Shown here: positions 7,680-62,526 of the stretch, piece after piece | Layout of the letters: each line of letters starts with the position of its first letter | How positions within the stretch are numbered: the stretch's first letter is position 1 | Source of the DNA: Candidatus Aminicenantes bacterium | Lineage (GTDB): Bacteria > Acidobacteriota > Aminicenantia > Aminicenantales > UBA4085 | Reading direction: 5' to 3' | NCBI GenBank assembly: GCA_022866045.1 | Contig: JALHTW010000126.1 | Coordinates: forward strand, 5,104-69,103 | DNA: 64,000 nucleotides | Notes under the pieces: generated by a model | The model's database searches: none | The model's input: the letters and a program-made list of their open reading frames with translations, nothing else | Told to the model about the DNA's origin: nothing | Position numbers and translations under genes: made by a program

Positions 7680-7767
7680 GCCACCTCCTCTTCAGGATAA
7701 TCCAATTTATCACAGCTCGGGCCGAATTTCATCAAGAACATTGACATCACGATTCGATTCAAAGAAG

Positions 7768-8400: not shown

Positions 8401-8442
8401 AAAGAGAAACAAGCAATGGTGGGCTAAAAAATATAGGCGTCA

Positions 8443-8470
8443 GCCCGCCTCGCGGGCGTTGTGGTTTTTG
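8443..8470 (+). terminator. Possible weak intrinsic terminator after the OMP gene
   Basis: 6-bp stem gcccgc/gcgggc with loop ctc, followed 6 nt later by a ttttt run. Confidence 0.3.
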
Positions 8471-8753
8471 GCCTTCTCCAATTGGGCTGTCGCCAAGCAG
8501 GCCGGCGGAGCAGGCCGATAAAACCAAGGTTTTCGTGACGCCACCCAGCTCCCCGACAGCGTCCGGGCGATCCGCGTGACGCCGAGCGTTTATACGACGC
8601 TCGAGAGCTTGATGTGTCCATCGAACGCGTCACCTATCTCGTGAAGAACGGCCTGCCGAAACAGAGAGGCGCAACCTGCCCGTTGATTTTGGGCCGGTTT
8701 TATCTTACAGTACCAAATGGGAAAAACGACCGGTTTCTAAAATGTTCGGGCCA

Positions 8754-12975: not shown

Positions 12976-13431
12976 AGCCCGATCTTCTTCCAATGAAGGG
13001 CTATGATACACAAATCATCCTTAGGGAACAATCGATGACTCATTTTTATAATGATACCGGGCCAGGCGGAGGGGGGGCGGAGCTGAATGACCCATCATCA
13101 AAAGGACCCCTGCCGAAATAAGAGATTTGGCTTCAGGGACGGGCATGTGCTTCTCTCTTCAAAAAAGATCGCCCTCAAAAAAATTGTTTATCTTCACGAA
13201 CAAACGTACAACGAGAAGCGATTTTCGCGAAGCCCCAAGATTTCTGTAACTTTTTTGGGTTGTCCGTCGTATTTACCAATGAGGATCTGATCTGGAGGTA
13301 ACAGGGAGAATTCTAGGCACAAAACTTGCAGCTAACTTTTTTGCCTGGCAAGCGATATACTTTATATGGGGAATGGGTTCTCGCTTGATAGATTTTTTTA
13401 CGCTCAACGTAAATTTTTCGAGGAGTCATGG

Positions 13432-14730: not shown

Positions 14731-14847
14731 GGGAGCACTATCGTGCGAACGATATTCATGAATACCCAAATGGCACTCCGAAGTAACAAAGGCGCGTTCG
14801 TCATGAGCTCTCAAACGAGAATCCAGGGAAAACCTGAAGAGGCTAGC

Positions 14848-16245: not shown

Positions 16246-16364
16246 ATAAATTTCTTATCCGCCCTCTAAGAGGAAAAACCGGTTTGATGCGTGGATGTCC
16301 TTCCTTCCGAGCTTTCAACAGGGAATCTTTCATTTTCATAATTCATCTTGGGGAAAGGAGGCGC

Positions 16365-17660: not shown

Positions 17661-17666
17661 GGAGAA

Positions 17667-19001: not shown

Positions 19002-20293
19002 CGAAACGCATTTTCATTCTCTGTTTGATCGTGGGCTGGGCGGCGGGTCTTTTCTTCGCCCAGACTAAGCCGGCCAAGGTCATTGCCATCAAGGGCGCGA
19101 AGATCGTCCCGGTCGTCGGGGATGACATCGACAACGGCACGATCCTGATCAAGGACGGCAAGATCGAATCGATCGGCAAGGATGTCGCTATTCCGAACGG
19201 CGCCGAAGTCGTAGAGGCCAAAGGCCTCTCCGCCTATCCGGGGATGATCGACAGCTACTCAATCCTCGGCCTCCAGGAGATCAGCGGCGTTTCGGCTACG
19301 GTCGACACCCGGGAAACCGGACGACTGAATCCGCAGGTCTTTGCCATCGAAGCGTTGCGCTACGACTCGATGCACATCCCGATCGCGCGCTCGAACGGCA
19401 TCACGGCGGCCATTGTCGCGCCCTCGGGAGGCGTCATCGCCGGCCAGAGCGTCCTCATTAAGCTCGACGGCTGGACCAACCGCGAGATGGTCATCAAGAA
19501 TCCGGCCGCCATGCAGATTGAATTTCCGGCCATCCGCGGCGGGCGGGGTGGATTCGGCGGCGGCATGGGCAGAGGAGGCGTGGTTGCGGTCGACGCGACC
19601 CGCCTGATCGCTGAACTGAAAGAGGTGTTCAATAAGGCCCGCTATTACAATAAAAGAAAGAATTTTGCGTCGAAGAATCCTTCCCTTCCCATCCCCGAGC
19701 TCGACGAAACGCTGGAGTTCATCCTTCCTGTACTCAAAGGCGAGCTTCAAGTCATGATCTCGGTCCATTCGGACAGGGACATCAAGGCCGCCATCCAGTT
19801 TGTCAAGGACGAGAACCTCAAAGCCGTTTTCTTCGGCGTTGAGCAGGGATGGAAGGTCGCGGACGATATCAAAATAGCCAATATTCCGGTCATCATCGGC
19901 TCGCTTTACGACATGCCGCCGGTCTGGGACGATGGATATGATTCGCTCTTTAGGAATCCGGTCATCCTCAACAAGGCGGGTGTCAAGATCGCTTTCTCTT
20001 CTATGAGCGCGAGCATAGCCAAGGACCTTCCATATCACGCGGCCAAAGCCGCGGCATTCGGGCTGGATAAAAAAGAAGCGCTCAAGGCCGTGACGATCTA
20101 CCCGGCCGAGATCTTCGGCGTCGATAAGCTGATGGGCAGTCTGGAAAAGGGCAAAATAGCCAACGTCGTCCTCTCCGACGGCGACATCCTGGAAACGAAG
20201 ACGAACATCAAGAAGGTTTATATCGACGGGAAAGAATGCGACCTTTCGAACAAGTACACGGAGCTGCTCGAGAAATTCAAGAAGAGAGGATAG
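18998..20293 (+). CDS. Amidohydrolase-fold protein, secreted, HxH motif absent (PGMIDSYSILGL), Gly-rich insert
   Basis: Paralog of the gene at 16365. Very few His residues; Gly-rich GGRGGFGGGMGRGG insert. Confidence 0.65.
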   Translation: MTKRIFILCLIVGWAAGLFFAQTKPAKVIAIKGAKIVPVVGDDIDNGTILIKDGKIESIGKDVAIPNGAEVVEAKGLSAYPGMIDSYSILGLQEISGVSATVDTRETGRLNPQVFAIEALRYDSMHIPIARSNGITAAIVAPSGGVIAGQSVLIKLDGWTNREMVIKNPAAMQIEFPAIRGGRGGFGGGMGRGGVVAVDATRLIAELKEVFNKARYYNKRKNFASKNPSLPIPELDETLEFILPVLKGELQVMISVHSDRDIKAAIQFVKDENLKAVFFGVEQGWKVADDIKIANIPVIIGSLYDMPPVWDDGYDSLFRNPVILNKAGVKIAFSSMSASIAKDLPYHAAKAAAFGLDKKEALKAVTIYPAEIFGVDKLMGSLEKGKIANVVLSDGDILETKTNIKKVYIDGKECDLSNKYTELLEKFKKRG

Positions 20294-20378
20294 TGAGGAA
20301 TGAAAGGGAGACAGGATTTTCAGCGGACCTCTCGGGCAGGGAGAAGGCCTTTTCAATTTTTAGGATAGGAGGAAAAAG

Positions 20379-22199
20379 ATGCGAATAACTCGCCATATTT
20401 TATTCGGATTATTAGCCGTTTGCTGGATGGTCGCTGGGAATTCCGCATTTGCCCCGGCTCAAGGCGCTGTTGAATACGACATCCTCATCAAAAACGGACT
20501 TGTCTATGACGGGTCGCTGGCGCCGCCGGCGAGGGTCGATATCGCCATCAAGGGCGAGACCATCGTCAAGGTCGCGAAATCGATCGACGGGACTGCTGCG
20601 CGCATCATCAACGCCAAGGGGCTGATCGTGACACCCGGATTCATCGACCTCCATACCCATGTCGATGAGGGAATGTATTTCCCGGAAAACAGAGCCTGCC
20701 TGAACTACCTGACCCAGGGCGTGACCACGGTCGTTGTAGGCCAGTGCGGCTCGAGCGCCTGGCCGATCTTCGAGAAGGCCGAGGACCTGATCAAGATGTG
20801 GACGAAGGAAGGGCTCGGGCCGAACGCGGCGGTCTTCGTCGGGCATGGGACCGTCCGGAACATCGTCCTTGGCATGGAAAACCGTGAACCGACGCCGGAG
20901 GAGCTCGAAAAGATGAAAGCCCTGGTCAAGGAAGCCATGGACCAGGGCGCCTCCGGGCTCTCGACGGGGCTGATCTATCTCCCAGGCGCCTATGCCAAAA
21001 CGAACGAAATCATCGAGCTGGCCAAGGTCGTCGCGCCGTACGGCGGCATCTACCACACCCACATCCGGAACGAACGAAACTTGCTTCTGACCGCTGTCCG
21101 GGAAGCGATCGAAATCTCGGAAAAAGCCGGCTTGCCCGCCCATATCTCGCATTTCAAAGTCATGGGCCAGGCGAATTGGGGGTTGGTCAAGGAAGCCTGT
21201 GCCGTCATCGAAGACGCCCGGGCCAAAGGAACGAAGATCACAGCCGACCAATATCCTTATCCCTTTACGAACGGCTATCCCTATCGATCTTTGATACCGA
21301 GAGCGACATGGGTCGGACGGGAGAATGTCGACCGCCTGACGCCCGCCGACGTCACGAGGATCTTCGACCATCTCGGCGATACGGAGCTCCTTGAGCTCTA
21401 TAAGAAGGTGACCCCGTATTATCCGTTGTCCGAGCGGCAGCTTCAATTCCTCGGCGGCTTGCCCCGGAAAAGGCTGGTGGATTTCACCGCTTCGTATCTT
21501 TTCAATATCGATAATTTCCAGGGGCCGGAGAATATGCGCGAGCGGATGCTTTTCTTAAAGCGGATGGCTGACCCGGTAGAGGTCAAGAAGATTCGCCAGG
21601 AGGTCCGCGCCTATATCGAAAATTCTCTCGGTCCCGAGAACTACATCGTCGGCATTTGCGTCGAAAAGAACCTCGAAGGGAAGTCCCTCAAGGACGTTGC
21701 AGCCATCAAAGGGAAGACCATCGAGGACGCCGCCATTGAACTCGACTTGATGGGAGCCAAGTGCATTCCTTTCCAGATGAGCGAGCCCGACATCGAGTCC
21801 ATCATGAAAAAGGATTGGGTTGGAACGGGAAGCGATGGGACGGCTCCGTCTTACGGGATCGGGATGACCCACATCCGCTCCTACTCGACGTTTTTGCGCA
21901 AGATCAAAAATTATGCTCTCGAGAAGCCGGTCCTCTCTCTCTCTCAGGCGATCCGCGCCCAGACGACGCTTCCGGCCCAGATCATGAAATGGGACGATCG
22001 CGGCTGGATCAAAGAAGGATACAAAGCGGATATCGCCGTCATCGACCTCAGGAACCTCAAGACCCCGACGTCCATTTCAAACCCCCACCAGTACAGCCGG
22101 GGGGTCGATTATCTTCTGATTAACGGCAAATTGGTCCTCGATAAAGGAACATGGAGCGGGGCGCTTCCGGGCCAGGTGCTCAAACTTAAGAAATCATAG
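20379..22199 (+). CDS. N-acyl-D-amino-acid deacylase (D-aminoacylase) family amidohydrolase, secreted
   Basis: 606 aa. RBS aggagg, signal peptide, GFIDLHTHVDEG HxH motif and a D-aminoacylase-like architecture with an insert domain. Confidence 0.65.
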   Translation: MRITRHILFGLLAVCWMVAGNSAFAPAQGAVEYDILIKNGLVYDGSLAPPARVDIAIKGETIVKVAKSIDGTAARIINAKGLIVTPGFIDLHTHVDEGMYFPENRACLNYLTQGVTTVVVGQCGSSAWPIFEKAEDLIKMWTKEGLGPNAAVFVGHGTVRNIVLGMENREPTPEELEKMKALVKEAMDQGASGLSTGLIYLPGAYAKTNEIIELAKVVAPYGGIYHTHIRNERNLLLTAVREAIEISEKAGLPAHISHFKVMGQANWGLVKEACAVIEDARAKGTKITADQYPYPFTNGYPYRSLIPRATWVGRENVDRLTPADVTRIFDHLGDTELLELYKKVTPYYPLSERQLQFLGGLPRKRLVDFTASYLFNIDNFQGPENMRERMLFLKRMADPVEVKKIRQEVRAYIENSLGPENYIVGICVEKNLEGKSLKDVAAIKGKTIEDAAIELDLMGAKCIPFQMSEPDIESIMKKDWVGTGSDGTAPSYGIGMTHIRSYSTFLRKIKNYALEKPVLSLSQAIRAQTTLPAQIMKWDDRGWIKEGYKADIAVIDLRNLKTPTSISNPHQYSRGVDYLLINGKLVLDKGTWSGALPGQVLKLKKS

Positions 22200-49532: not shown

Positions 49533-51302
49533 CTATGAGTTCCAAGCTTTAAACTCCAAGGCTTCGATGAACATCGTTTGGAATTCGGCGTCTTTCGCCA
49601 GGCTCAAATGGCGGACCCTGTTCGCAAGCCTCTCACAGCGAATGCGCTCGGGGCGGGACAAGAGCAAAGCCTTGGCGCCAGCGAGCGAGGAATTGCCCAC
49701 GAAAAAGATCTTTTTTCGGTCAATGCAGGGGAGCAGCCCCAGTTTCATGCTGTGGGGGATGTTGAGATAGTTGCCGAATGCGCCGGCGACGTATATGCCG
49801 TCCAGGTCTTTGACTGCCATTTTATTCTTCGCCAGCAATATCCGAATGCCCGTCTTTACGGCCGCAACGGCGAGCTGGACTTCACGAATATCTTGCTGGT
49901 TCAGGGAGAGATCGTTCGTCACCTCAATCTTCTTGGCTGGGCCCAGGATATGACCCTGGGCAGAAATAAAGCCCTTATCCAACGCGACGGCGATAATGTC
50001 GATCAGGCCCGTGCCGCACACGCCGCGGGCCGGCTCGCCGGCGATCGTTTCCACGACCAGCCTGTCTTTGAATCCGGCCTTATAAACGGCCCCGGGCAGG
50101 GCGAGCATCCCGCAACTGATCGTCATCCCTTCGAAGGCCGGGCCGGCCGCCGTCGAAGTCGCCGTGAAACGGGCCCTTCTTTTGAGGACGATCTCCCCAT
50201 TTGTGCCCAGATCGACGAATAGAAAATTCCCCTTTTGATGCTCCAGGTCGACCGCCGACAGGCCTGCGGAGATGTCGCCGCCGACGAAACTCTTGATGTT
50301 CGGGGCAATATAGACTCGACCCAAGGGAGAGATCGCAAGTCCCGACTCGACCGCCGGCAGCGCGGGAAGGACAGAAAAAACGGCCTGATAGGGCGACACG
50401 GCCAGGGTCGTGACAGGCAGGCCGAGGAGCAGATGATTCATGGCCGTATTCCCGGCCACGACAGCTTCATACACGGAATCCGACGAAACTTGATTCCTGC
50501 GGAGCAGGCCCCCGACCATCTCGTTAAGACCACCAACAATGGCCGTCCGGAGGTCCTCGAGCTTACGGGGATCGGCATACGCCGCCGTGATCCTGGAGAC
50601 CACATCCGCTCCGTATTTTACTTGGGCGTTCAGTCCGGCGGTCGAATCGAGAGACTTCCCTGTGTTGAGATCGAGGAGCTCGACGATCACCGTCGTCGTT
50701 CCGAGATCGACGGCGATCCCGAAGTCCCGGCCTGTCGTGTCTCCCGGCTCGATCGCGAGCAACTCCTTGTCGGCATAAAGGACGGCGGTCCATTCGGCGG
50801 CAGCAGGGGCGAGTTGATGATTTTGAGCAAAGCGCCGGAGAGTTTCCAAGGACAGGTGAAGCTCGACGTTTGGAAACCGGCGCTGGATAAAATCCAAAAG
50901 GGAATCCGGAGAAGCCAAATCGGGCTTTTGAGCCGACAGGCTGATCTTCTTAACAGCTGGGTCAAGGGTTAGAGAACGGCCGACTCCATGGCTGAGCACG
51001 GGCATGTGGAGAAGCAAGGATTCGAGGGGAATACGGATGGCCATGTCCCCCTCGACCCTGGCCCGGCAGGCGAGCCGGAAGTTCGCCGGAAGTTTCCTCC
51101 GGGCTAATAAAGAACGCTCTTCATCGCTGGCCGAAGGAAGGGCGCCGCGGACGATCTCCACAATACATTTGCCGCACAACCCGCGCCGGCCGCAGTAAAG
51201 GCTGAGGCGAAGGCCGGCGTCTTCGAGGACGTCAGACAAAATCTTGCCGGATGCGACTTTCAAAACCCGGCCTTCAGGCAGGATCTTCAGAGCGTGGCTC
51301 AT
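49533..51302 (-). CDS. ramA: Corrinoid reductive activase RamA (2Fe-2S ferredoxin domain + ASKHA ATPase)
   Basis: N-terminal CGRRGLCGKCIV ferredoxin-like cysteine motif followed by a large ASKHA-fold domain. 589 aa. ATGA overlap with the upstream permease. Confidence 0.75.
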   Translation of the reverse strand: MSHALKILPEGRVLKVASGKILSDVLEDAGLRLSLYCGRRGLCGKCIVEIVRGALPSASDEERSLLARRKLPANFRLACRARVEGDMAIRIPLESLLLHMPVLSHGVGRSLTLDPAVKKISLSAQKPDLASPDSLLDFIQRRFPNVELHLSLETLRRFAQNHQLAPAAAEWTAVLYADKELLAIEPGDTTGRDFGIAVDLGTTTVIVELLDLNTGKSLDSTAGLNAQVKYGADVVSRITAAYADPRKLEDLRTAIVGGLNEMVGGLLRRNQVSSDSVYEAVVAGNTAMNHLLLGLPVTTLAVSPYQAVFSVLPALPAVESGLAISPLGRVYIAPNIKSFVGGDISAGLSAVDLEHQKGNFLFVDLGTNGEIVLKRRARFTATSTAAGPAFEGMTISCGMLALPGAVYKAGFKDRLVVETIAGEPARGVCGTGLIDIIAVALDKGFISAQGHILGPAKKIEVTNDLSLNQQDIREVQLAVAAVKTGIRILLAKNKMAVKDLDGIYVAGAFGNYLNIPHSMKLGLLPCIDRKKIFFVGNSSLAGAKALLLSRPERIRCERLANRVRHLSLAKDAEFQTMFIEALEFKAWNS

Positions 51303-52687
51303 ATCCGGCCTCTATTCGCGGCGACACGATTTTTTCCCGCCGTCCAAAAGAAATAGGCGGGCAGTCCGGCCAGAATGAGGCCTGCCCCGGCCAGGGCTTG
51401 AACCGGCCGGGAAAATATCACGGCGATAAAAATGACAAGATTGAAAACGACGTAAAGGATCGGCAGGACGGGATATCCCCAGGCCCGGAACGGCCGTTCG
51501 CGGTCAGGCACTTTCCGCCGGAGGACGAGCACGGAGAAGCCCGTGGCGGCGAAAAAGAGGACCAGGGCGAACGCCACATATTCGATCAGGCTCTGATAGG
51601 TTCCGGAGAGACAGAGGAGGCTGGACCAGATCATCTGAGCCAGGATGGCCTTTGTCGGGACCCGAAAACGGGGATGGACGAAGGAGAGGTTTTTGAAGAA
51701 AAGCCCGTCCCTGGCCATGGCGAAGGAAACGCGCGGAGAATAAAGGATGTTCGCGCTCAGGCAGCCCAGCACGGCGACGGCGACGACGGCCGAAAAAAGC
51801 CGGGCGATCCCGGGCCCGAAGAGGCGGACCGCGGCCAATTCACCGATTCGAAGAACTCCGTCCATCTCGTTCACCGGAAGAGCCATACTATAAACGATAT
51901 TCGCCAGCAAATAAAGCGCGGCCACGGCCGCTGTGCCCAGGACGAGCGAGCGGGGGATCGTCTTGCGCGGATTCCGGATTTCCTCAGCCGTGCAGCTCAC
52001 GGAATACCAGCCGTCATAAGTCCAGATGACGGCCAGGAGAGCGGCCCCAAAATATGTCCATGAAGGGATGCGGCCTACCGGAAAAAACGGGACCAGATTT
52101 TGAAAGCCCGGTTTCTTGCCGATCATGAGACCGAGAGCTGCGAACGCTAGGAGGGCTGCGATCCGGAGGCCTGTCATCAAGTTCTGGAAACGAGCTCCGC
52201 CCTGGATGCCGAAATAATTGAGCCCGGAAAGGATCATGATCGACAGAATGGCCGTGACATGCCCTGCGCTCAGGCTAAGATGGATCGGGCCCAGGTTAAA
52301 CGCGCACAGCATATGCCCGGAAGAGAGAGCTGGAACCAAAGACCCAAAATATTCCGCGAAACCTATAGCCAAGGCGGCAATCCCGCCGCCCCCGATGATC
52401 CAAAAAAAAGTCCAGCCATAGAGAAAAGAAACGGATGACCCATAGGCTTCTTTGAGATATACATAGGGCCCACCCGAGCCTGGATAGAGCGTTCCAAGCT
52501 CGGCGTATGTCAATGCGCCGAGGGTCGTTATAATCCCGCCCATGATCCAAACCAGCCAGATCAGGCTAGGGGAGGGGAGGCCTGAGGCAATGATCCCAGT
52601 GGTAAGGAAGATCCCGGAACCGAACACGGACCCTATGACTAGAAACAGGGAATCTGCGAGGCCCAATTTTCGGGCAAGCTCAGTCAA
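51299..52687 (-). CDS. APC-superfamily amino acid / organocation permease
   Basis: 12-TM APC transporter with the TM1 GSGIF motif. TTG start at 52687 preceded by AAGGAA. First gene of the five-gene operon. Confidence 0.75.
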   Translation of the reverse strand: MTELARKLGLADSLFLVIGSVFGSGIFLTTGIIASGLPSPSLIWLVWIMGGIITTLGALTYAELGTLYPGSGGPYVYLKEAYGSSVSFLYGWTFFWIIGGGGIAALAIGFAEYFGSLVPALSSGHMLCAFNLGPIHLSLSAGHVTAILSIMILSGLNYFGIQGGARFQNLMTGLRIAALLAFAALGLMIGKKPGFQNLVPFFPVGRIPSWTYFGAALLAVIWTYDGWYSVSCTAEEIRNPRKTIPRSLVLGTAAVAALYLLANIVYSMALPVNEMDGVLRIGELAAVRLFGPGIARLFSAVVAVAVLGCLSANILYSPRVSFAMARDGLFFKNLSFVHPRFRVPTKAILAQMIWSSLLCLSGTYQSLIEYVAFALVLFFAATGFSVLVLRRKVPDRERPFRAWGYPVLPILYVVFNLVIFIAVIFSRPVQALAGAGLILAGLPAYFFWTAGKNRVAANRGRI

Positions 52688-53165
52688 TTTATTTCCTTTT
52701 AAATAATCTTATCTTGTTGATTTTAATGCGATTATAAGCTTTTTATTTATAATTCAGCCTCATTATATGAAAAGCCTGCTAAAACATCAATGAAATGAGT
52801 TTTCCTATTCTTTGCCACTTTTCTTATATTCCTTAATTATCCCAGATTTATTTTGTTTAACCCAAGTTATTGACAGTTTCTTTTTCATCGAATATCAGGT
52901 TTTTGACTTCTTAAAACCAATGAAATAACATTTTATATATTACTTATCCCATATATTATATCGGTATTATGTAATATAATGACAATGATAATTTTTTTAA
53001 CGTCCTTAAGAAGCCTTAAAAAAGATAATGGATCATCAAGAAGTTCTTCGTCTTTTTATTTATTTTTCATCTATTTTTTTGGCTTCGTTTTTATTGGCCG
53101 TGTATAAAAATCTTTTTTTTAGATTATTTTTCTTGTAACCCGTGGTATTTAAATAAATTCTATTT

Positions 53166-53183
53166 ATGTCGGCCGGCCGACAT
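53166..53183. repeat. Perfect 18-bp palindrome atgtcggccggccgacat
   Basis: Self-complementary 18-mer embedded in AT-rich DNA, ~95 bp upstream of parA. Candidate operator or centromere-like site. Confidence 0.8.
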
Positions 53184-53277
53184 TTCTCTTTTAAAACGCT
53201 TGAAATTTCAGCGTATTTTAAGTATCTTATTCTTGCCTTTCAGTTTTATGACCGCTATTTGAACCAAGGAGAAGGGC

Positions 53278-54042
53278 TTGATTATCGCTGTCACGAATCA
53301 AAAAGGCGGAGTAGGGAAGACCACCACGGCCGTGAATGTCTCCGCTGCGCTCGCGTTGAGCGGATGCCGGGTATTGCTTGTTGACGCCGATTCCCAAGCT
53401 CATAGCACAAAGTCGTGCGTTAAGGACCCAAACAGCAACGAGAAATCTCTCTATGATGTTCTGATGCACCCGGAACAAAAGATCCAAGCTGCGATCATGA
53501 AGTCCACGATTCCGGGTTTGGATGTCGTTATTTCGCGAGTATCCATGGCTAAGCTTGAATCGTCGCTCCTCGGCCAGATCGATGGGCATTTTAGGTTAAA
53601 AGACGTCTTGGAACCTGTCCGCGAACGGTATGAATTCATCTTGATCGATACGCCGCCAACCTTGGCCTTGATTACCCTGAACGCCCTCGTCGCTGCCTCT
53701 CATCTTTTGATTCCTATTCAAGCTTCGTACTTGTCTCTCGAGGGCACAGACGATCTGCTTGAAACAATCGAGAAGGTAAGGCGTGTCGCAAATCCAAAGC
53801 TGCAGATCCTAGGCATCCTGATCACACTCCATGACAGCCGGACAAATATTGCCCGGGACGTCGTCGAACGCATCCAGCGTGTTTTCGGCGAAAAGGTTTT
53901 TCATACGTATATATCTAAAAGCGTCAAGATCGAAGAATGCCCGGCCTACAAGGAATCGATTTTTACGTATGCGGGCAACTCGGTTGGCGCGCTGCAATAT
54001 AAAAAAGTCGCCGAGGAGATATTGAAACGTGCAAAAAACTAA
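53278..54042 (+). CDS. parA: ParA/Soj-family partition ATPase
   Basis: IIAVTNQKGGVGKTTTAVNVSAALA deviant Walker A. TTG start with RBS aaggag. Lower GC than flanking core genes. Confidence 0.85.
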   Translation: MIIAVTNQKGGVGKTTTAVNVSAALALSGCRVLLVDADSQAHSTKSCVKDPNSNEKSLYDVLMHPEQKIQAAIMKSTIPGLDVVISRVSMAKLESSLLGQIDGHFRLKDVLEPVRERYEFILIDTPPTLALITLNALVAASHLLIPIQASYLSLEGTDDLLETIEKVRRVANPKLQILGILITLHDSRTNIARDVVERIQRVFGEKVFHTYISKSVKIEECPAYKESIFTYAGNSVGALQYKKVAEEILKRAKN

Positions 54043-54877
54043 GCGCTCAGGACTTCCAGACAATATAGGTATGCGACATGATACGCATTTCGTCGAATTC
54101 ATTTCGAGAACAGTCGCGGCGCCTCTAGTCCGATTGATCTCCCTTGACCGTATCGATCCGAATCCCCATCAGGCCCGAAGTGAATTGGGGAATATCGAAG
54201 AGCTGATGTCCTCGATCAAATCTAAGGGTGTTTTAGAGCCTATCCTTGTCCGTCCCCGCAGAGACCGATATGAGATCATTGCTGGCGAGCGCCGGTTCGT
54301 GGCCTCGAAGAACGTCGGTCTTAAAGAAATTCCGTGCATTGAAATGAACGTCACGGATAATGAGGCCATGGAGATCTCGCTCATTGAGAATCTCCAGCGC
54401 AAAGACCTTGATGTTTTTGAGGAGGCAGACGGACTCGGAACTCTGATCGATATCTATGGCTACAGCCACGCCCAAATCTCGGAAAAAATTGGAAAGGCCC
54501 GCTCTACGATCACGGAGATCATCAATATCAGCAAGATCCCGGCGCCGATCCGTAAACTGTGCCAGGCGAGTTCTATCGATAAAAACCGCAGCCTTCTCAT
54601 CGAGATCTCTAAACTAAAAAATGTGGAGGAAATGAAGACAGTTATAGATAATATTAGAGAGCGGGGTCTCAAAAGAGAGGATACGCGCGACCTGACAAAG
54701 CTTCTTAAGGGCAAAGAGACAGATAAGAAAAAACCGAAATATTATGTCTTCAATTATAGTCCCAAGGAAGACCGTTCCTGCCGGATCCATATCGAATTCA
54801 AAAAAGAATCCGTCAGCCGCCAGGAAATTATTCGCATTCTTGAAGATCTTCTTGCTAAGTTGAAGACAAATCAATAA
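54029..54877 (+). CDS. parB: ParB/Spo0J-family partition protein
   Basis: ParB box EIIAGERRFVASKNVG plus an HTH region. GTG start overlapping the parA end. Low GC. Confidence 0.8.
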   Translation: MQKTKRSGLPDNIGMRHDTHFVEFISRTVAAPLVRLISLDRIDPNPHQARSELGNIEELMSSIKSKGVLEPILVRPRRDRYEIIAGERRFVASKNVGLKEIPCIEMNVTDNEAMEISLIENLQRKDLDVFEEADGLGTLIDIYGYSHAQISEKIGKARSTITEIINISKIPAPIRKLCQASSIDKNRSLLIEISKLKNVEEMKTVIDNIRERGLKREDTRDLTKLLKGKETDKKKPKYYVFNYSPKEDRSCRIHIEFKKESVSRQEIIRILEDLLAKLKTNQ

Positions 54878-55327
54878 TATTTTTACGCTTCAATTAGAAT
54901 CTCTTTCTTGAACTTAAAGAAATCCAAATGAACAAAAATTCATTGACCTATTTGCCTTTAGGAAGAATCAGGCCTCTTATGCATAGCTTAAATATGTAAA
55001 GAAGAACAGTGAGCTTTCGAAAGCGTCTTATGGCCTAATGGCCAAATCGCATTAGTTTACATAATAACTCTTATGCGACTCATAATTCATATACTTTTCA
55101 ACCTATTTATTTTCAACTAGATATGATAATTACGAAGTTTTTTGTCAATTTCAAGACAATATATTGCGCGTTTGTCCAAGCTAATCGGCTTATATTGATG
55201 TTGATAATATCAGGCTTGTCTTAATTTTGCCTTAGCTCTATCATAAATTAATGCCCCCTTTATAAATTCCGTTTCTTTTATTAAGCTAATTCTTGACCCA
55301 AATTTTCTAATGATTTTTGCGTTTAGG

Positions 55328-55855
55328 CTAATAAGAGCTCGGTTCGGGACCAGAGGCATGGAGTTGAACGATCACCCAACGTCCGTCTCGTCTCTCCAAA
55401 ACGCCGCTGATTCTCAGGCCTTCTATGACAAACGTTTTGCCCTTTTCAACTTCTTTCCAAGACAGTACTTCAGAGAACCAGGCGGCCTCTCCGGACCTGT
55501 GGACTTTGATCCTTTGGTCCTTAAGCCCAATCTCTATCCGGTCAACGGACGTAAAATATTTATCTATATATGCCTGGGTCATCTTCCAGCCCACGCGCCG
55601 GTCTAAAGGATTGCTGCCAAAGACGACGAGATCCTCATCGTGGGCATAGACTTCGGCCACTCCTTCCCTATTTCTTGTTTGAAAAGCTTTTATATATCGC
55701 TCAAGTACGGCCTTGACGGCCGCTTTTTCAGTGTCAATATCTATGGCCGGCTGGGCTTTCTGATGAAGATCCTCGTTCAAAGATGCGTTCATAGAAACGG
55801 TGCAAGCGGCCAACAGAACCGCCAAAATAGCTTTGGTCGCTAATTTTCTCATCAT
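55328..55855 (-). CDS. Secreted NTF2-like/SnoaL-like (DUF4440-type) protein
   Basis: Signal peptide MMRKLATKAILAVLLAACTVSMNA. NTF2-fold pattern (VLERYIKAF...WKMTQ...RDGRWVIVQLHAS). ATG at 55855; the ORF-track start at 55876 is TTG. Confidence 0.5.
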   Translation of the reverse strand: MMRKLATKAILAVLLAACTVSMNASLNEDLHQKAQPAIDIDTEKAAVKAVLERYIKAFQTRNREGVAEVYAHDEDLVVFGSNPLDRRVGWKMTQAYIDKYFTSVDRIEIGLKDQRIKVHRSGEAAWFSEVLSWKEVEKGKTFVIEGLRISGVLERRDGRWVIVQLHASGPEPSSY

Positions 55856-56455
55856 CCTCTCCCTCTTTAAACTCAATTTTATTTTAATGTTCTATTTCGG
55901 GATCGAAATGCTAGACCTAATGTTGGCCAAAGGATAACAATTGCGGAGCAAGGTGTCAAATTCCGATAGAAGCTATAAAAAAATAGCTGCGGGGAAGAAT
56001 AACCTGAATCCTGCATCAAATATAGTGGATGAACTTGATAAATGAAAAATATTGAGCGATTCATATGATATTTAGGGCTCATTCTTAACCTAACTAAAAG
56101 GTAAGTTAAGAAAAAAGTTCTTTGATCAGCTCAATATGAATATAACTTGCTGATATCATTATGGTTATGTGATATTTTAGCAATCATTTATTAAAAAATT
56201 CAGGCAGGATTCAGGTTTAATTCTCCCCGGCCTAATTTTCGGCAAAAATTAGGCAAAATTCCCTGCCTGATTTTTCATGTTATCCCCGATTATTTGTCCC
56301 CGAAAGGAGATTATCGGAGGAAAAAAAAGGGCCTGTCTTTCCCCTTTTCTAAAGGGGAATACCCGGGAATTCGGGATTGTTCCTAAAAATAGGGATTTGT
56401 CTTTAAAGAAAAGACGACACGTTATATCGCGTGTAAGATAGACAAAACAGGCGAG

Positions 56456-57286
56456 TTATGACAATCCTTGCCCCCCGGCTTTGGCCAGTCGTACGGTACT
56501 CCAGAAGGAATGTTTCGGCGGCAGTCGGTCTATGCCTCTGGCCCCAGCGGTGATGTCCGTGGATCGACCGAGGTCTGTTTCGTTGGAGATATTCGACTGT
56601 TCTCCCCGGGCTTTAGCGATCGCCTTTCTCTGCTCCTCGGTCGGCCCGCCCCATTCAAAGCCGATCGTCACCGCCGCTCCGGGCTGAGCGCCGATGCCCG
56701 CGGCATTGTCTTGGACGCGATTCAAGGGGACGGCGAATTCATAGACGAGCGATTTTTGCGGGGAGGCATATTTGAACATGGCCGGCAGGACGCCAGGAGG
56801 GACGGGAGATAATCCGGTTTTTTTGGTCACGACTTCGGATGCGTAATAACTATAAAAGGGCTTGGAGCGTATCTGGGCCTTCTGGTCCTCGGAGACGGCG
56901 CTATCCTTTTCCAGCAGGGCGATGAATTCTTCGGCCGTGATCCGTTTCCTCAGGAAATGAATACCATAATTTTTATTTCTGTTCCCTTCGGTGTCGACAT
57001 AAAGCGTGATCCCCACGTCTTCGATCGTGCTCCGGAGTTTCGAGTCTTTGATGATGAACAGGACATACAGCTTTTGGGCGTCATTGCGGAAGGCATATTG
57101 GATTCCTCCTTTTTCCCATTCGGCGAGCGCCGCCCCTTCCCATTCATTCGCCGCTCCGTCGAGCTTGGGGGGTTGGTTCGTCCAGACGCTTTCTGTCGTC
57201 TTGTCCTCCGCGGCCCGACCGGAGATTGCCGGCAGAATCGCCAGGGCCAAAACCATGCTCAGAATTAAAAAAGACATCTTTTTCAT
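56456..57286 (-). CDS. Secreted hypothetical protein
   Basis: Signal peptide MKKMSFLILSMVLALAILPAISGRAAED. No recognisable domain. ATG at 57286. Confidence 0.45.
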   Translation of the reverse strand: MKKMSFLILSMVLALAILPAISGRAAEDKTTESVWTNQPPKLDGAANEWEGAALAEWEKGGIQYAFRNDAQKLYVLFIIKDSKLRSTIEDVGITLYVDTEGNRNKNYGIHFLRKRITAEEFIALLEKDSAVSEDQKAQIRSKPFYSYYASEVVTKKTGLSPVPPGVLPAMFKYASPQKSLVYEFAVPLNRVQDNAAGIGAQPGAAVTIGFEWGGPTEEQRKAIAKARGEQSNISNETDLGRSTDITAGARGIDRLPPKHSFWSTVRLAKAGGQGLS

Positions 57287-57411
57287 TCTCATTAAACTTC
57301 TCCTCGCGCCTCTTAAAAACCTCATTGTTTAAGTATGAAGAATCCCATCCCAAAAATCAACTCCCCTCACGTCATGACGCGGTTTCTCAGATAAAATGAT
57401 TGCCACCCCCC

Positions 57412-57439
57412 AAAAAATCCCCGGCTGTGATTGCAGCCG
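57412..57439 (-). terminator. Possible intrinsic terminator downstream of rho
   Basis: 6-bp stem cggctg/cagccg with a 6-nt loop. On the minus strand it is followed by GGGATTTTTT (plus strand aaaaaa at 57412-57417). Confidence 0.3.
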
Positions 57440-57504
57440 ATCTTAGAAAAAAAAGCCGTTCGGACCTACCTTGGTGCGAGCCCAAGCAGCCTTCGAACCG
57501 GGGA

Positions 57505-58806
57505 TTACAGTCCTTTACTCATCGCGTTGAGGAAGTCAGAGTTCGTCTTCGTCCTTCCCAGTTTATCGATCAGCAGCTCCATGGCCTCGACTTCCGAAAG
57601 CTGGCTGAGGACCTTCCGCAGGATCCAGATCCGGTTGAGGTCGTTCTCCTCGATCAGCAGTTCCTCTTTTCTCGTCGCGGACCGGTTGATATCCATGGCC
57701 GGGAAGGTGCGCTTATCCACGAGCCGGCGGTCAAGGTTGATCTCCATGTTGCCCGTTCCCTTGAACTCTTCGAAAATGACTTCATCCATCCGGCTCCCGG
57801 TGTCGATCAGGGCCGTGGCGATGATGGTCAAGCTTCCGCCTTCCTCAATTTTCCGTGCTGAGCCGAAGAACTTCTTGGGCTTGTTCAAGGCGTTGGCATC
57901 GATACCGCCCGAAAGGACTTTACCCGACGGAGGAATGATGGCGTTGTGCGCCCGGGCGAGGCGGGTGATGCTGTCGAGCAGGATGACGACGTCTCGCTTG
58001 CTCTCGACGAGACGCTTGGCCTTTTCAAGAGCGATGTTGGCGACCTGCGCATTTCGCCCCGGCGGCTCGTCGAAGGTCGACGCGACAACTTCGCCGCTGA
58101 CGCTGCGCTGGAAGTCCGTCACCTCTTCGGGCCGTTCGGCGACGAGAAGGACGATCAGGAAGATCTCAGGGTGGTTCTTCTCGATGGATTTGGCGATGGT
58201 CTTGAGGAGGGTCGTTTTTCCGGCGCGCGGAGGCGAAACAATCAGCCCTCTCTGGCCTTTGCCGATCGGAGTCATCAGCTCCATGATCCGGGCGTTGAGG
58301 TTCTTGGGATTGCCGTCCTGGAGCTTGATCATCTCGTTAGGGTAAATAGGCGTCAACTTCTCGAAATGGATGTTCCGGCGTTGGTCGATGCAGATGTCCG
58401 GTTCCATGAAATTGATGGCTTCGATCTTGATCAGGGCGAAATATTTTTCGCCGTTCTTGGGCGGCCGGACGATGCCCGAGATCGTGTCGCCCGTCCGGAG
58501 CTGGAACTTCCGGATCTGGGACGGGGACACATAGATATCATCCTGGCTGGGCAGATAGCTGAATTCCGGCGCGCGGAGAAAGCCGAAGCCGTCCTCCAGG
58601 CACTCGAGGACGCCCTCCGAGAATAGCAGTCCTTGTTTTTTTGCCTGGGCTTCCAGGATTTTAAAAGTCAGGTTGTGTTTATTGTCTTTTTCTAGCTCTT
58701 CGTCAGGAATGCCGATCTGTTCGGAGATCTTGAGCAGCTCCTTCGTCTCCTTGCCTTCAAGGTCGATCAGGCTGAACTCTTTCAATTCTTTCGTTTCTCT
58801 CGTCAT
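57505..58806 (-). CDS. rho: Transcription termination factor Rho
   Basis: Near full-length match to Rho as I recall it: GFGFLR, YVSPSQIRKFQLRTGD, Walker A PPRAGKTTLL, and C-terminal TGSRMDEVIFEEFKGTGNME. Confidence 0.95.
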   Translation of the reverse strand: MTRETKELKEFSLIDLEGKETKELLKISEQIGIPDEELEKDNKHNLTFKILEAQAKKQGLLFSEGVLECLEDGFGFLRAPEFSYLPSQDDIYVSPSQIRKFQLRTGDTISGIVRPPKNGEKYFALIKIEAINFMEPDICIDQRRNIHFEKLTPIYPNEMIKLQDGNPKNLNARIMELMTPIGKGQRGLIVSPPRAGKTTLLKTIAKSIEKNHPEIFLIVLLVAERPEEVTDFQRSVSGEVVASTFDEPPGRNAQVANIALEKAKRLVESKRDVVILLDSITRLARAHNAIIPPSGKVLSGGIDANALNKPKKFFGSARKIEEGGSLTIIATALIDTGSRMDEVIFEEFKGTGNMEINLDRRLVDKRTFPAMDINRSATRKEELLIEENDLNRIWILRKVLSQLSEVEAMELLIDKLGRTKTNSDFLNAMSKGL

Positions 58807-58819
58807 GGTTTACCTCTCA

Positions 58820-61267
58820 TTAGTGCGTTAAAGGGGGTTCTTTTGGGGTTTCGCTCCCCTCCCCTTCCCGGGTCGGGATTTCTTCAAGGACCTCTTCCTT
58901 GGCCTTCTTTCTTCGTCCGATTTTTAGGGGAAGTTCCTTGGTCAAGACGATCTTCAGGACTTCCTCCATATTTTCCACCAAATGGATCTTCATGTCGTGT
59001 AGGACGTTCTTCGGAAGGTCTTTAAGGTCAGGCCTGTTATCGAGGGGCAGGATCGCTTCCCGGATGCCTTCGCGATGGGCGGCGATCAATTTCTCTTTAA
59101 TACCGCCGACCGGAAGCACCTTGCCTCGGAGCGTGATCTCGCCGCTCATGGCCACCTTCTTGCTCACCGGGATCTCCGTGAGCAGCGACAGGATGGCGAT
59201 GGCGAACGGGATCCCGGCCGAAGGTCCTTCCTTGGGCGTCGAGCCCTCAGGCACATGGACGTGGATGTCGAAATTCTTCGTGACATCCTTGGCGACATTA
59301 AGCTCGAAGATCTTGGCCCGAACGTAGCTGAACGCCGCCTGGGCCGATTCCTGCATGACTTCTCCGAGCTGTCCGGTCAGGGTGAAATTACCCTTGCCGT
59401 GGACCTTGTTAGCCTCAAACGTCAGCAGCTCGCCGCCGAATTCCGTCCAGGCCATGCCGATGGCCACGCCGATTTCGTCCTCTTTATCGATCTCTGAGCG
59501 CCGGAATTTGGGAACGCCGAGGTGCGCTTCAAGGTTCTTGAGCGTCACTTTCTCTTTGTAGTCCCTGCCCTTCATGACGACCTTTTTAACGACCTTACGG
59601 CAGATCGAAGTGATCTCGCGCTCCAGGCTCCGTACGCCGGCCTCCCGCGTGTACTCGTTGATGAGCTTCACAATAGCCTTGTCCGAGATCTCCAGGTTCT
59701 TGTTCAAAAGCCCGTGGATTTTCAGCTGTTTCAGCCATAGGAACCGCTTGGCGATCTGGAGTTTCTCATCCTCGGTGTAGCCGGGGAGTCGGATGATCTC
59801 CATGCGGTCCACGAGCGGCCGCGGGATGGGCTCGAGCAGGTTGGCCGTCACGATGAACATGACCTGGGATAGGTCGAAGTCCGTGTCGATATAATGGTCG
59901 AGGAACGTGCTGTTCTGCTCGGGATCGAGAACTTCCATGAGCGCCGAGGCTGGGTCGCCCCGGAAATCCATGCTCATCTTGTCCACTTCATCCAAAAGGA
60001 AGACAGGATTCTTTGTCCCCGCCCGTTTGATCATTTGAATGATCCGGCCCGGGTAGGAGCCGATGTACGTCCGGCGGTGGCCCCGGATCTCGGCCTCATC
60101 GCGAACGCCGCCCAACGACAGGCGGACGAATTTCCGGCCCGTGGCCCGCGCAATCGACCGCCCCAGGGAGCTTTTCCCCACGCCGGGCGGGCCGATCAGG
60201 CCCAGGATGACGCCTTTGGGATTTTTAACGAGCTGCCGGATGGACAGGAATTCAAGGATACGCTCCTTGACCTTTTCCAATCCATAGTGGTCTTCATTGA
60301 GGATCTTTTCAGCTTCCTTGAGGTTGCGTTTTTCGCGGGATTTTTTGTTCCAGGGCAACGACAGCAGCCAGTCCAGGTAGTTCCGGCAGACCGTGGCTTC
60401 AGCCGACATGGGCGGCATGGTCTCGAGCCGCTCAATCTCCTTCCGGGATTTCTCGTCCGCGTCAGGCGGCATCTTGGCCGCGGCCACTTTTTTCTTAAGC
60501 TCTTCGAGCTCGCCGGCCTGGTCGTCTTTTCGCTGGCCGGGTGTTCCCGCCGGGGTGAATATATTCGGCCCGCCTTCCCGGGCAAACGGGACCTTGCGCC
60601 GGTTCAGAGCCTTTCCATCTTTACGGAGGTTCGTCTGGATTTTATAAAGCTCATTTTCAAGGAGGAAATTGAGGCGGCGGATCCGTTCTCGGCTGTTGAC
60701 CGTCTCGAGCAGATTCTGTTTCTCTTCGAGCGGGAGATAGAGGTGAGACGAGATGATGTCCGCAATGCGGTCGGGCGTGTGATCGCGGAGCGCCGGGATG
60801 ATAGATTGAAAATTCGTGTTCTGGCTGAGCTTGAGATAGTCCTCGAAAAGGACGAGCACATGCTTCAGCTCTTCCTGGGTCTCCTTCGCCGGCTCCTCCA
60901 AGATCTTGATCTCCTTGGCCAGGACCTGATAGAAAGGATAAGAGCTGACGAATTCCAGGATCCGGGCCCGCCTCTTCCCCTCGACGATGACTTTGACGTT
61001 TTTCTCGTCCATCTGGACGGTCCGGATGACCTTGGCCGTGATGCCCATGGAATAGATGTCTTTGGGGCTCGGGTTATCGAGCGAAGCGTCCATCTGGGCC
61101 GAGAGCATGATGAGGTTGTTGGCCCCGGCCGCTTTTTCAAGCGCCTGGATCGACGACGCCCGGCCGATAATGAAGGGCACCAGGGTCGAAGGAAAAACGA
61201 CGAGGTCTCTGAGCGGGATAAGGGGGACGTTCTTCAGAATCTCATAATGTTCGCCTGAATTTTCCAT
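58820..61267 (-). CDS. lon: ATP-dependent Lon protease
   Basis: LON N-domain, AAA+ GPPGVGKSS, and S16 protease domain PKEGPSAGIPFAIAILS. ATG at 61267 two nt after the clpX stop; the ORF-track start at 61273 is GTG. Confidence 0.95.
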   Translation of the reverse strand: MENSGEHYEILKNVPLIPLRDLVVFPSTLVPFIIGRASSIQALEKAAGANNLIMLSAQMDASLDNPSPKDIYSMGITAKVIRTVQMDEKNVKVIVEGKRRARILEFVSSYPFYQVLAKEIKILEEPAKETQEELKHVLVLFEDYLKLSQNTNFQSIIPALRDHTPDRIADIISSHLYLPLEEKQNLLETVNSRERIRRLNFLLENELYKIQTNLRKDGKALNRRKVPFAREGGPNIFTPAGTPGQRKDDQAGELEELKKKVAAAKMPPDADEKSRKEIERLETMPPMSAEATVCRNYLDWLLSLPWNKKSREKRNLKEAEKILNEDHYGLEKVKERILEFLSIRQLVKNPKGVILGLIGPPGVGKSSLGRSIARATGRKFVRLSLGGVRDEAEIRGHRRTYIGSYPGRIIQMIKRAGTKNPVFLLDEVDKMSMDFRGDPASALMEVLDPEQNSTFLDHYIDTDFDLSQVMFIVTANLLEPIPRPLVDRMEIIRLPGYTEDEKLQIAKRFLWLKQLKIHGLLNKNLEISDKAIVKLINEYTREAGVRSLEREITSICRKVVKKVVMKGRDYKEKVTLKNLEAHLGVPKFRRSEIDKEDEIGVAIGMAWTEFGGELLTFEANKVHGKGNFTLTGQLGEVMQESAQAAFSYVRAKIFELNVAKDVTKNFDIHVHVPEGSTPKEGPSAGIPFAIAILSLLTEIPVSKKVAMSGEITLRGKVLPVGGIKEKLIAAHREGIREAILPLDNRPDLKDLPKNVLHDMKIHLVENMEEVLKIVLTKELPLKIGRRKKAKEEVLEEIPTREGEGSETPKEPPLTH

Positions 61268-61269
61268 GG

Positions 61270-62526
61270 TCACACTCCGATGGCTTGCTTGATCCGGTCG
61301 AAGCTCAGCTCCTTCTCTTCTACCATCCGCTTCGTAATCCGAATCTTGGCTGTTTTCTTGGAAGATGGCAGATAGAACATGATGTCGAGCATGAGGTCCT
61401 CGATGATCGTCCGGAGCCCGCGGGCGCCGAGCTTGCGCTCGAGCGACTTCTGAGCGATGGCCCGTAGGGCTTCTTCCGAGAACTCCAGCCCGACGCCTTC
61501 CATTTCGAAGAGCTTTTGATATTGCTTGATAATGGCGTTCTTGGGTTTCTTCAGGATGTCCACGAGGTCGTTGACGCCGAGCTCGGTGAACGTTGCCACA
61601 ATCGGGATCCGGCCGATGAGCTCGGGGATGAGGCCGTATTTGATCAAGTCCTGCGGGATGAGCTCGCTTAAGAGTTCGGCCGTCACATCCGGCTTTTTCA
61701 GTTTCATCTCAGATTTAAAGCCGACGACCGATTTTCCCATTCTCTGGGCGATGATCCGGTCGAGCCCGACGAAGGCTCCCCCGCAGATGAAGAGGATGTC
61801 CGTCGTGTCGACGGGGATGAACTCCTGATAGGGATGTTTGCGACCGCCCTGGGGCGGGATGTTGGCCACAGTCCCCTCGATGATCTTGAGGAGCGCCTGC
61901 TGGACGCCCTCACCCGAAACGTCTCGGGTGAGGGAGGGGCTGTCGCCCTTTCGACTGATCTTGTCAATCTCATCGATGTAGACGATGCCTTTCTGCGCCT
62001 TGGAAATGTTTCCCTTGGCCGCCTGGAAGAGCTTCAGGACGACATTCTCGACGTCCTCCCCGACATAGCCAGCTTCGGTCAGCGTCGTGGCGTCGGCGAT
62101 GGAGAACGGCACGGACAGGATCTTGGCCAGGATTTGGGCCATGAGCGTCTTCCCCGTCCCGGTCGGCCCGATGAGCAAGATGTTGCTCTTAGCGATCTCG
62201 ACATCCGAGCTCACCCGGGGCATGGTGATCCTTTTGTAATGGTTGTAAACGGCCACGGAGATCTTTTTCTTTGCTATCTCCTGGCCGACGATATATTCGT
62301 CCAAGGCGTCTTTGATCTCGCTCGGCGTCGGAAAGCCGCCCACCGTCTTCGTTTCGTCCTCTTTCACCCTGTCCGAAAGGACCATGGAATGGGCGACCTC
62401 GATGCAATTGTCGCAGATGAAGATGCCGCCCGGACCGGCGATCAATTTCTTGACCTGGGTCTGGTTGCGGTTGCAGAAGTTGCACTTGACCAGCGTGTTC
62501 ATCTTATGTTGGGTACCGTCATCCAT
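61270..62526 (-). CDS. clpX: ATP-dependent Clp protease ATP-binding subunit ClpX
   Basis: C4 zinc finger CNFCNRNQ...CDNC. AAA+ Walker A GPTGTGKT. Confidence 0.95.

Follow-up and report, generated by a model that had tools for sequence, protein, structure and literature searches.

Chromosomal parS, the centromere site of bacterial ParABS partition systems, is described as strongly conserved across the great majority of bacterial chromosomes (review PMC7022226). The ParB residues that recognise it are numbered here as in Caulobacter, after Jalal et al. 2020 (PMC7383237). That paper calls R173, which reads parS G1, and G201 absolutely conserved across ParB orthologs; N178 and R204 are DNA contacts conserved in ParB and Noc (PMC7383237). 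In Firmicutes, the ParB paralogue Noc has changed its DNA site, the Noc-binding site (NBS), via a few residues in helices spanning approximately positions 173–204, and position 6 of the Noc site, a C, is read by Arg 201 (PMC7383237). Here, we describe a 64-kb stretch of DNA from a Candidatus Aminicenantes bacterium (contig JALHTW010000126.1; the whole stretch is referred to below as the window), in which parA and parB lie within a stretch of low guanine-plus-cytosine content (GC) at 52688–56455, and we propose that it probably holds a chromosomal ParABS system with a non-canonical parS, TGTCGGC-NN-GCCGACA, instead of TGTTNCACGTGAAACA. In the literature searched, we found nothing on this palindrome or on parS in Aminicenantes or Acidobacteriota.

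We compared the window with 23 related loci collected by a ParB search, taking one genome per species (mostly named Candidatus Aminicenantes, the rest carrying generic names; ParB identity 58–84%), and two of these loci lie on complete chromosomes of 4.1–4.3 Mb. The DNA covered comprised the 64-kb window and approximately ±10 kb around the relatives’ loci, one of which (L015) is a 1.1-kb contig with parA-parB only. When the 200 nt preceding parA were aligned for all loci, the sole invariant feature was TGTCGGC-NN-GCCGACA, which takes the form A-TGTCGGCCGGCCGACA-T in the window, and the remainder was unalignable. The palindrome was present at 0–1 mismatch, 70–210 bp before the parA start, in 22/22 related loci with upstream DNA; its half-sites were invariant and its centre was CG, AT, AC, CT, TG or AG, and in most relatives the motif CTTGNA-17-TAxxxT came 10–25 nt after it. 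Two upstream copies were found in L006, L008 and L019, and an additional one-mismatch copy lay in intergenic DNA 0.5–1.9 kb away in L016, L017 and L020; for such extra copies we estimate a chance expectation of ~0.08 matches in ~480 kb. This is presumably the 18-bp palindrome that an earlier, sequence-only reading of this DNA had mentioned, giving neither coordinates nor sequence.

That reading had also reported that canonical parS was missing, and the absence is confirmed: we found no match to TGTTNCACGTGAAACA at ≤2 mismatches in the window or in the 23 related loci (L001–L023), the lone 3-mismatch match in the window being at chance level, and none at ≤1 mismatch in L024–L151. Its suggestion of an atypical centromere is well supported by a conserved non-canonical palindrome beside parAB together with an altered ParB recognition helix. 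Separately, approximately 10 Aminicenantes species (including L006, L009, L012, L013, L014 and L023) have an AT-rich block, TTTTATTTATTATCAAT, whose end stands ~12 bp ahead of the palindrome, at a fixed distance; the block is absent in the window, and about half of its copies fit the IHF consensus WATCAANNNNTTR.

The recognition helix of ParB differs from that of described orthologs at several positions. Among 24 Aminicenantes ParBs, the 23 sequences that cover this helix read GKARSTITEI almost without exception (two have GKGR and one has V for I), and the metagenome ParBs adjoining the site, which are described below, all read GKSR(T/S)x(I/V)TE(S/A/I)L(S/T/A)L. Overall, site-associated ParBs share GK[AS]R[ST]x[IV]TE, as against GK(S/A/G)(R/Q)SxVANxLRLL in canonical ParB and Noc. 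R173 is retained, N178 has become E, and G201-H-A-R204 has become K-N-R-S or S-K-S with a basic residue at approximately 203; the window ParB therefore keeps R173 and lacks the N178/G201/R204 contact set. The half-site, GTCGGCC vs. GTTTCAC, has kept G1-T2 and changed at positions 3–6, with a C at position 6 as in the Noc site, and from these sequences we infer that the kept and changed residues of ParB correspond to the kept and changed bases of the half-site. An exhaustive search among 50%-identity ParB representatives revealed a sharp step in identity from 67% to 45%. The ParB family below the step shares an N-terminal K(R)xGLP....MRHDxH(F/Y)VE, the TE helix and, as guessed from the sequence, a C-terminal tail with beta-beta-alpha-like secondary structure; its named members are Acidobacteriota, including Acidoferrales, and canonical-helix ParBs appeared only from ~E = 1e-36. 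In residues 1–34 of the window ParB (54029–54130) and in its relatives, K(R)xGLPxxxxMRHDxH(F/Y)VE stands in place of the usual LGRGLxALI ParA-activating peptide.

The palindrome also extends beyond Aminicenantes. Metagenome contigs scanned for exact TGTCGGCCGGCCGACA gave at least 120 matches, and parA/parB stood beside the site in 44/120 among the matches listed. Most of the parAB-bearing metagenome loci with the site encode a ParA ~55% and a ParB 35–45% identical to those of the window, in DNA with a GC of 0.60–0.70, and a protein search with one such ParB (L090) returned relatives named Vicinamibacterales by NCBI. We tabulated site positions in 46 parAB-bearing loci (the 44 among the matches listed, plus L150 and L151) and found 48 sites upstream of parA, 78–354 bp from its start with one outlier; 13 sites inside parB at approximately residue 180, where TGT CGG CTG GCC GAC ATT reads as C-R-L-A-D-I; and 8 sites downstream of parB, with 2–3 copies in 19/46 loci. 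This multi-copy pattern around parAB resembles parS clusters and not a single operator, and the occurrence of the site together with an altered-helix ParB in at least two Acidobacteriota classes is supported by these comparisons.

Further copies of the palindrome lie in several settings. The parB-internal copies of Vicinamibacterales are found in L150 (10523–10538) and in L041, L042, L084, L101, L107, L109, L116, L122, L140 and L145; there, the palindrome encodes the conserved C-R-L-A-D-I of the DNA-binding domain, so that the gene carries its own presumed site. In two related contigs, L127 (8768, 10688) and L086 (2884, 4795), the palindrome occurs once inside glyS (D-V-G-R-P-T) and again between glyS and ppdK; this intergenic copy has conserved half-sites, a centre of GC or AC, and a second palindrome, TTAAAGTAnTnCTTTAA, adjoining it, and no parAB lies on these stretches. 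Approximately 25 of the metagenome matches belong to an unrelated repeat family on contigs of ~45% GC, and many of the others arise by chance in coding DNA of high GC. The repeat family has the consensus GGGTAAACACTACATCGGCCC-TGTCGGCCGGCCGACA-GGGTCCCTGTCGGCCAGTTTTCAAAAAAA, in both orientations, and includes L032, L034, L048, L055, L057, L063, L081, L083, L095, L096, L117, L126, L130, L135, L139, L147 and L149, among others.

The genes and features of the locus in the window are as follows:

51299–52687, − strand: amino-acid permease gene (AA_permease_2, 2e-57); left neighbour, diverging from parA; syntenic in 14/23 loci.
52688–53166: AT-rich spacer 1, poorly conserved in sequence (whole gap 52688–53277, GC 0.27).
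53167–53182: palindrome TGTCGGCCGGCCGACA (18 bp with its A/T flanks, 53166–53183); candidate non-canonical parS and ParB operator.
53200–53228, + strand: sigma-70-like parA promoter, TTGAAA-17 nt-TATCTT; the −35 begins 17 bp past the palindrome.
53278–54042, + strand: parA, 254 aa, TTG start; short Soj-type deviant-Walker-A ATPase, NQKGGVGKTT.
54029–54877, + strand: parB, 282 aa, GTG start, 14-nt overlap with parA; GERRF and ENLQR motifs; helix GKARSTITEIINISKIP.
54878–55327: AT-rich spacer 2, GC 0.31; begins the variable parB-rho region.
55328–55876, − strand: SnoaL/NTF2-like lipoprotein gene, 182 aa; SnoaL_3, 3e-16; lipoprotein-type signal LLAAC.
55877–56455: AT-rich spacer 3, GC 0.36; holds a 316-bp segment, 56022–56337.
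56456–57325, − strand: hypothetical secreted protein gene, 289 aa; no Pfam or NCBIfam match; patchy, within the variable region.
57505–58806, − strand: rho (Rho_RNA_bind, 2e-32); conserved right neighbour.
58820–61273, transcribed towards the locus: lon, beyond rho.
61270–62526, transcribed towards the locus: ClpX homologue, beyond lon; synteny with L151.

The sequence-only reading had called ParA, ParB and a secreted NTF2-like protein, and profile matches bear out all three calls: AAA_31 (3e-56), with CbiA (1e-24) and MipZ (1e-12), for ParA; ParB_N (8e-26), HTH_ParB (1e-12) and TIGR00180 (1e-42; 146 bits against a cut-off of 58) for ParB; and SnoaL_3 with the LLAAC signal for the third. The TTG and GTG starts that it assigned to parA and parB agree with the N-termini conserved among relatives. 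A contig index searched for exact matches to the ParA, ParB and NTF2-like proteins of the window yielded none. ParA has the deviant Walker A motif (KGGxGK[ST]) in the short Soj-like form, its gene is preceded by a GGAG ribosome-binding site 8–11 nt upstream, and the products of the relatives’ parA genes are 68–86% identical to it. ParB combines N-terminal CTPase motifs (GERRF, and IENLQRKDL in the alignment) with a central helix-turn-helix (HTH), as a ParABS system demands. The divergent promoter of the permease gene probably lies within spacer 1.

We reasoned that these components could work together as a centromere and its partition machinery. The palindrome is likely to be a ParB site, judging from its conservation beside parAB and from the helix changes in ParB. 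A ParB dimer would nucleate on it via the altered helix-turn-helix, then close as a clamp dependent on cytidine triphosphate (CTP; GERRxR and ENLQR motifs) and spread over the flanking AT-rich DNA, and the Soj-type ParA would move the resulting partition complex. The ParB complex at the palindrome probably autoregulates parAB as well, because the palindrome ends 17 bp before the −35 hexamer.

The compositional setting of the locus was examined alongside its gene order. Background GC in the window is ~0.56 (0.54–0.61 per kb outside two dips), and at 52–57 kb the per-kb GC falls to 0.42–0.47; at 300-nt resolution the three non-coding stretches have a GC of 0.26–0.35 and the genes 0.42–0.52, with parA, parB and the NTF2-like gene at 0.46–0.50. 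The GC contents of the three AT-rich spacers given above compare with 0.41–0.56 in all other window gaps of ≥150 nt between open reading frames (ORFs) of ≥200 aa. GC at third codon positions (GC3) is 0.53 in parB, 0.53 in the NTF2-like gene and 0.58 in parA, vs. 0.71 ± 0.05 in 40 other window ORFs (z-scores −3.7, −3.8 and −2.6, respectively). The dip at 52688–56455 is thus real and far from typical for the window, as the sequence-only reading had claimed, but its surroundings have a GC of 0.54–0.61 and not the 60–65% that it gave. A second, milder dip (0.48–0.52) lies at 13012–16143, where the adjoining ORFs 13366–14730 (454 aa) and 14743–16143 (466 aa) have no Pfam match at E ≤ 1e-8; at 16284–22199, four consecutive amidohydrolase-family paralogues on the + strand are followed by an asparaginase-2 gene.

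Synteny was mapped by tblastn with twelve window proteins as queries against the 23 species-level loci. Wherever contigs reach, the gene order is MTTB-type methyltransferase, corrinoid protein, RACo-like activase, permease, parA, parB, a variable gap, rho, lon and ClpX homologue, and the order permease-parA-parB-[variable]-rho-lon is, as far as contigs reach, common to 23 Aminicenantes species with genomic GC ranging from 0.48 to 0.67. The parA-parB operon stands in this core chromosomal context on the two complete chromosomes as well. GC3 of parA and parB is lower than that of rho and lon in every locus having them, and lower than that of the permease gene in most, and the spacer upstream of parA in relatives measures 350–700 bp and is AT-rich for its genome. 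Because the GC3 offset persists across the class whatever the genome GC, parAB is not unameliorated foreign DNA. The best explanation, which as a whole we consider likely to be correct, is that parAB is a vertically inherited chromosomal partition locus with the palindrome as its centromere, and that its low GC is a conserved property of the locus and not a mark of recent transfer; a strong low-GC ‘island’ can, in other words, turn out to be a conserved core locus.

Alternative accounts of the palindrome have to be weighed against a role as centromere. It might be a mere operator of parAB, bound by ParB in a KorB-like manner or by another regulator, with the true centromere elsewhere, perhaps as a canonical parS with a second ParB. 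This is unlikely. In its favour, the palindrome occurs once in the window and keeps a set place ahead of the promoter, some members of the ParB subfamily have no nearby palindrome, KorB-type ParB proteins are known as regulators, and KorB structures matched the window ParB, albeit weakly. Against it, the sites of Vicinamibacterales also occur inside and downstream of parB, the L086/L127 copy stands in an unrelated intergenic region, the site in L014, L016 and L023 is 180–210 bp from the parA start and well off the promoter, and the window ParB carries all the CTPase motifs, its translation being coupled to that of a Soj-type ParA. Several observations nevertheless count against a ParB-bound centromere at this palindrome. 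Operator and centromere roles are inseparable in the 64-kb window, where the palindrome is single-copy; the absence of canonical parS covers the window and the locus stretches, and a second, canonical parABS may lie elsewhere in the genome; the alignment at residues 201–204 is ambiguous by one residue; and the palindrome was not found within 5–6 kb in six loci of the subfamily or of the wider (T/S)E-helix group (Acidoferrales L026–28, L029, L152–L155). The link between helix and site is not one-to-one, because these loci with a similar helix lack the palindrome. We can give hardly any credence to the idea that the palindrome serves as a structural element, as an intrinsic terminator or a cruciform, instead of binding a protein. 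The window copy folds into a 7-bp stem with a T-rich tract behind it, and a terminator scan flagged it; however, no + strand gene upstream needs termination, the T-run is missing in most relatives, the primary sequence of the half-sites is invariant and only the centre varies, copies also lie within the parB coding sequence, and we saw no compensatory stem changes across species, the half-sites being identical. As an intrinsic terminator, specifically, it was rejected, since the permease gene is divergent and nothing is transcribed into the palindrome. An Rfam search of 52400–57600 at a permissive E-value gave no match. Taking the palindrome as a ParB-bound centromere, we suggest only tentatively, and with the balance somewhat against it, that Aminicenantia and Vicinamibacteria may have replaced the near-universal centromere altogether, so that their sole chromosomal ParB would read TGTCGGC-NN-GCCGACA (through N178E and loss of G201/R204) and the genome would retain neither canonical parS nor canonical ParB.

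The locus as a whole invites two further alternatives; the sequence-only reading had raised the first and, with regard to the second, a position close to the origin. It is most improbable that the 3.8 kb were acquired horizontally, as a plasmid-like partition cassette or a genomic island. In favour of this are the marked fall in GC and GC3, a weak direct repeat of 35 nt (D2; 71% identity, 52653–52687 and 56222–56256), although no flanking repeat is convincing, and the genuinely patchy distribution of the NTF2-like gene and the 316-bp segment, as expected of a genomic island. For parAB, however, such patchiness is lacking: the genes occupy one and the same chromosomal position throughout the class, in 23 species (58–86% protein identity), and their GC3 offset is found in all relatives irrespective of genome GC. 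A tRNA search of the whole window found none, and Pfam named no integrase among the island genes or the scanned window ORFs of ≥200 aa up to 43 kb. The best plasmid ParB matches in PLSDB are 28–42% identical over part of the protein, no plasmid DNA matches the locus except an 82-nt stretch of parA, and type Ia/Ib plasmid features are absent, in that the 254-aa ParA has no N-terminal HTH and ParB is of HTH type and not ribbon-helix-helix. We also rejected the D2 repeat as att-like island borders, given the universal synteny of parAB and the position of the right-hand copy within the 316-bp indel. The cassette proposal is accordingly unsupported for parAB; of the findings that the sequence-only reading had named as refuting its proposals, synteny of parAB with the core genome was found and a canonical parS was not. 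The other alternative, in which the AT-rich spacers are the chromosomal origin of replication (oriC) with parAB alongside, is very unlikely. An oriC combines clustered DnaA boxes with an AT-rich unwinding element and is usually found next to dnaA/dnaN. The partition genes do adjoin three non-coding stretches of unusual AT-richness, and the cumulative GC skew of the window has a minimum at ~57–58 kb; but this minimum is very shallow, with no convincing switch within the 64 kb, and the spacers change quickly from one close relative to the next, indels included. No DnaA box at ≤1 mismatch was found in 52688–53277 and only one (55199) in the whole island, a weak test in that the consensus is that of Escherichia coli and may not be this phylum’s; the DnaA-box-like words that had been quoted as weak differ from TTATCCACA at 3 positions. 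In the 53 kb to the left of the locus and the 9 kb to its right, neither motif searches nor Pfam scans covering 30 additional ORFs detected dnaA, dnaN, gidA/B or gyrB, so the neighbourhood of dnaA/dnaN/gidAB that the sequence-only reading had proposed looking for was not found in the window, and syntenic locus L151 has no dnaA/dnaN/gidAB either. Finally, an oriC in the spacers is disfavoured because rho, lon and the clpX homologue, which are normally highly expressed genes, are transcribed towards the locus and would be head-on to forks leaving it.

Beyond parB, the locus is variable, and the island, which had been presented as a single unit, proved to be a composite of conserved and lineage-specific parts. 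The distance from parB to rho in relatives ranges from 212 to 3828 bp. The NTF2-like gene, which has its own promoter-like site (TTGACA-17-TATCCT at 55959–55931), had no tblastn match in the 23 species-level loci and was found in the metagenome contig L024, whose identity to the window is 93%; the 289-aa gene had tblastn matches only in L001 (47%) and L002 (81%, partial), and L024 has a 274-aa gene at the equivalent position, in DNA that is 93% identical. The AT-rich segment at 56022–56337 is present in the window, missing from L024, and without a further copy in the window or the loci. Near its 3′ part, 56199–56217 is an inverted copy of the 19 nt at 56001–56019, just left of the insertion point, and the segment may have arisen as a small insertion, or it may be an element that forms a hairpin. 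Both the NTF2-like gene and the 316-bp segment are best explained as having entered the variable region between parB and rho later. Genes are 93–97% identical between the window and L024, and identity is 94.6% over the 111 bp running from the palindrome to the start of parA; the AT-rich spacers drift, as they are only 89–90% identical, with indels (spacer 1: identity 0.90 with 34 gap columns vs. genes at 0.95–0.97).

Two loci without the palindrome have features of their own. At 5544–5559 in L155, a different perfect 16-bp palindrome, GTTCGGACGTCCGAAC, lies at the same parB codons, and its core, TCGG-N4-CCGA, is common with the Acidobacteriota site, a likeness that is suggestive only; this ParB, of the wider (T/S)E-helix group, stands in a mobile-element context with transposases, Phage_rep_O and DUF3987. 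L154, from Acidobacteriota, carries at 6826–8996, 1 kb downstream of parB, a diversity-generating-retroelement-like set consisting of an RVT_1 reverse transcriptase, bAvd and target genes with an FGE-sulfatase fold.

If the palindrome has indeed replaced canonical parS altogether, the locus would represent a natural, ancient and lineage-wide switch of ParB-parS specificity on a main chromosome. With a different site and recognition helix, a large, environmentally abundant lineage that has kept ParA and the ParB CTPase core would offer a natural experiment in protein-DNA co-evolution affecting an important machine. It would also supply an additional orthogonal ParB/parS pair for DNA-labelling tools, and it would mean that parS-based origin finding and annotation overlook these genomes.

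Among the closest described systems is Soj/Spo0J-parS (Bacillus, Caulobacter, Thermus, Myxococcus), which has, like the loci described here, a short Walker-type ParA and an HTH ParB with GERRxR/ENLQR in one operon, and a 16-bp palindrome that starts with TGT and ends with ACA, with sites clustering in and around the par operon. Bacillus subtilis spo0J itself carries an internal parS, to which the parB-internal copies described here may be compared, and the solved structures closest to the window ParB are Thermus Spo0J (1VZ0, 2e-33) and Myxococcus ParB (7BNK, 1e-32). Unlike Soj/Spo0J-parS, the inner half-site here is that of GTCGGCC and not GTTTCAC, TE takes the place of the near-universal AN (N178E), G201 and R204 are not conserved, the N-terminus reads K(R)xGLP....MRHDxH(F/Y)VE where LGRGLxALI is usual, and no gidAB or dnaA stands beside the operon within the 64-kb window. 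Noc-NBS offers a second comparison, with which the locus shares the C at half-site position 6 and a basic residue near 201–203; the Noc model TIGR04285 is the top NCBIfam score for the window ParB, yet at 156 bits against a cut-off of 315. In contrast to Noc, the window ParB has R173 (Q in Noc) and lacks the Q173/K179/K184/R201 set, no NBS sites were found in the window, ParB is paired and translationally coupled with ParA, and the organism belongs to Acidobacteriota and not to Firmicutes. ParBs of secondary replicons and plasmids also have their own parS (Burkholderia chromosome 2, gTTTATGCGCATAAAc; Vibrio chromosome 2; KorB-OB of RK2). The locus resembles these systems in pairing a ParB homologue with a private palindromic site, and KorB, too, regulates from sites upstream of promoters; no plasmid relative of the window ParB exceeds ~42% identity. 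Secondary-replicon systems, however, accompany a canonical system on the main chromosome, whereas the locus described here lies among rho, lon and a clpX homologue and is, in two complete genomes, on the main chromosome itself.

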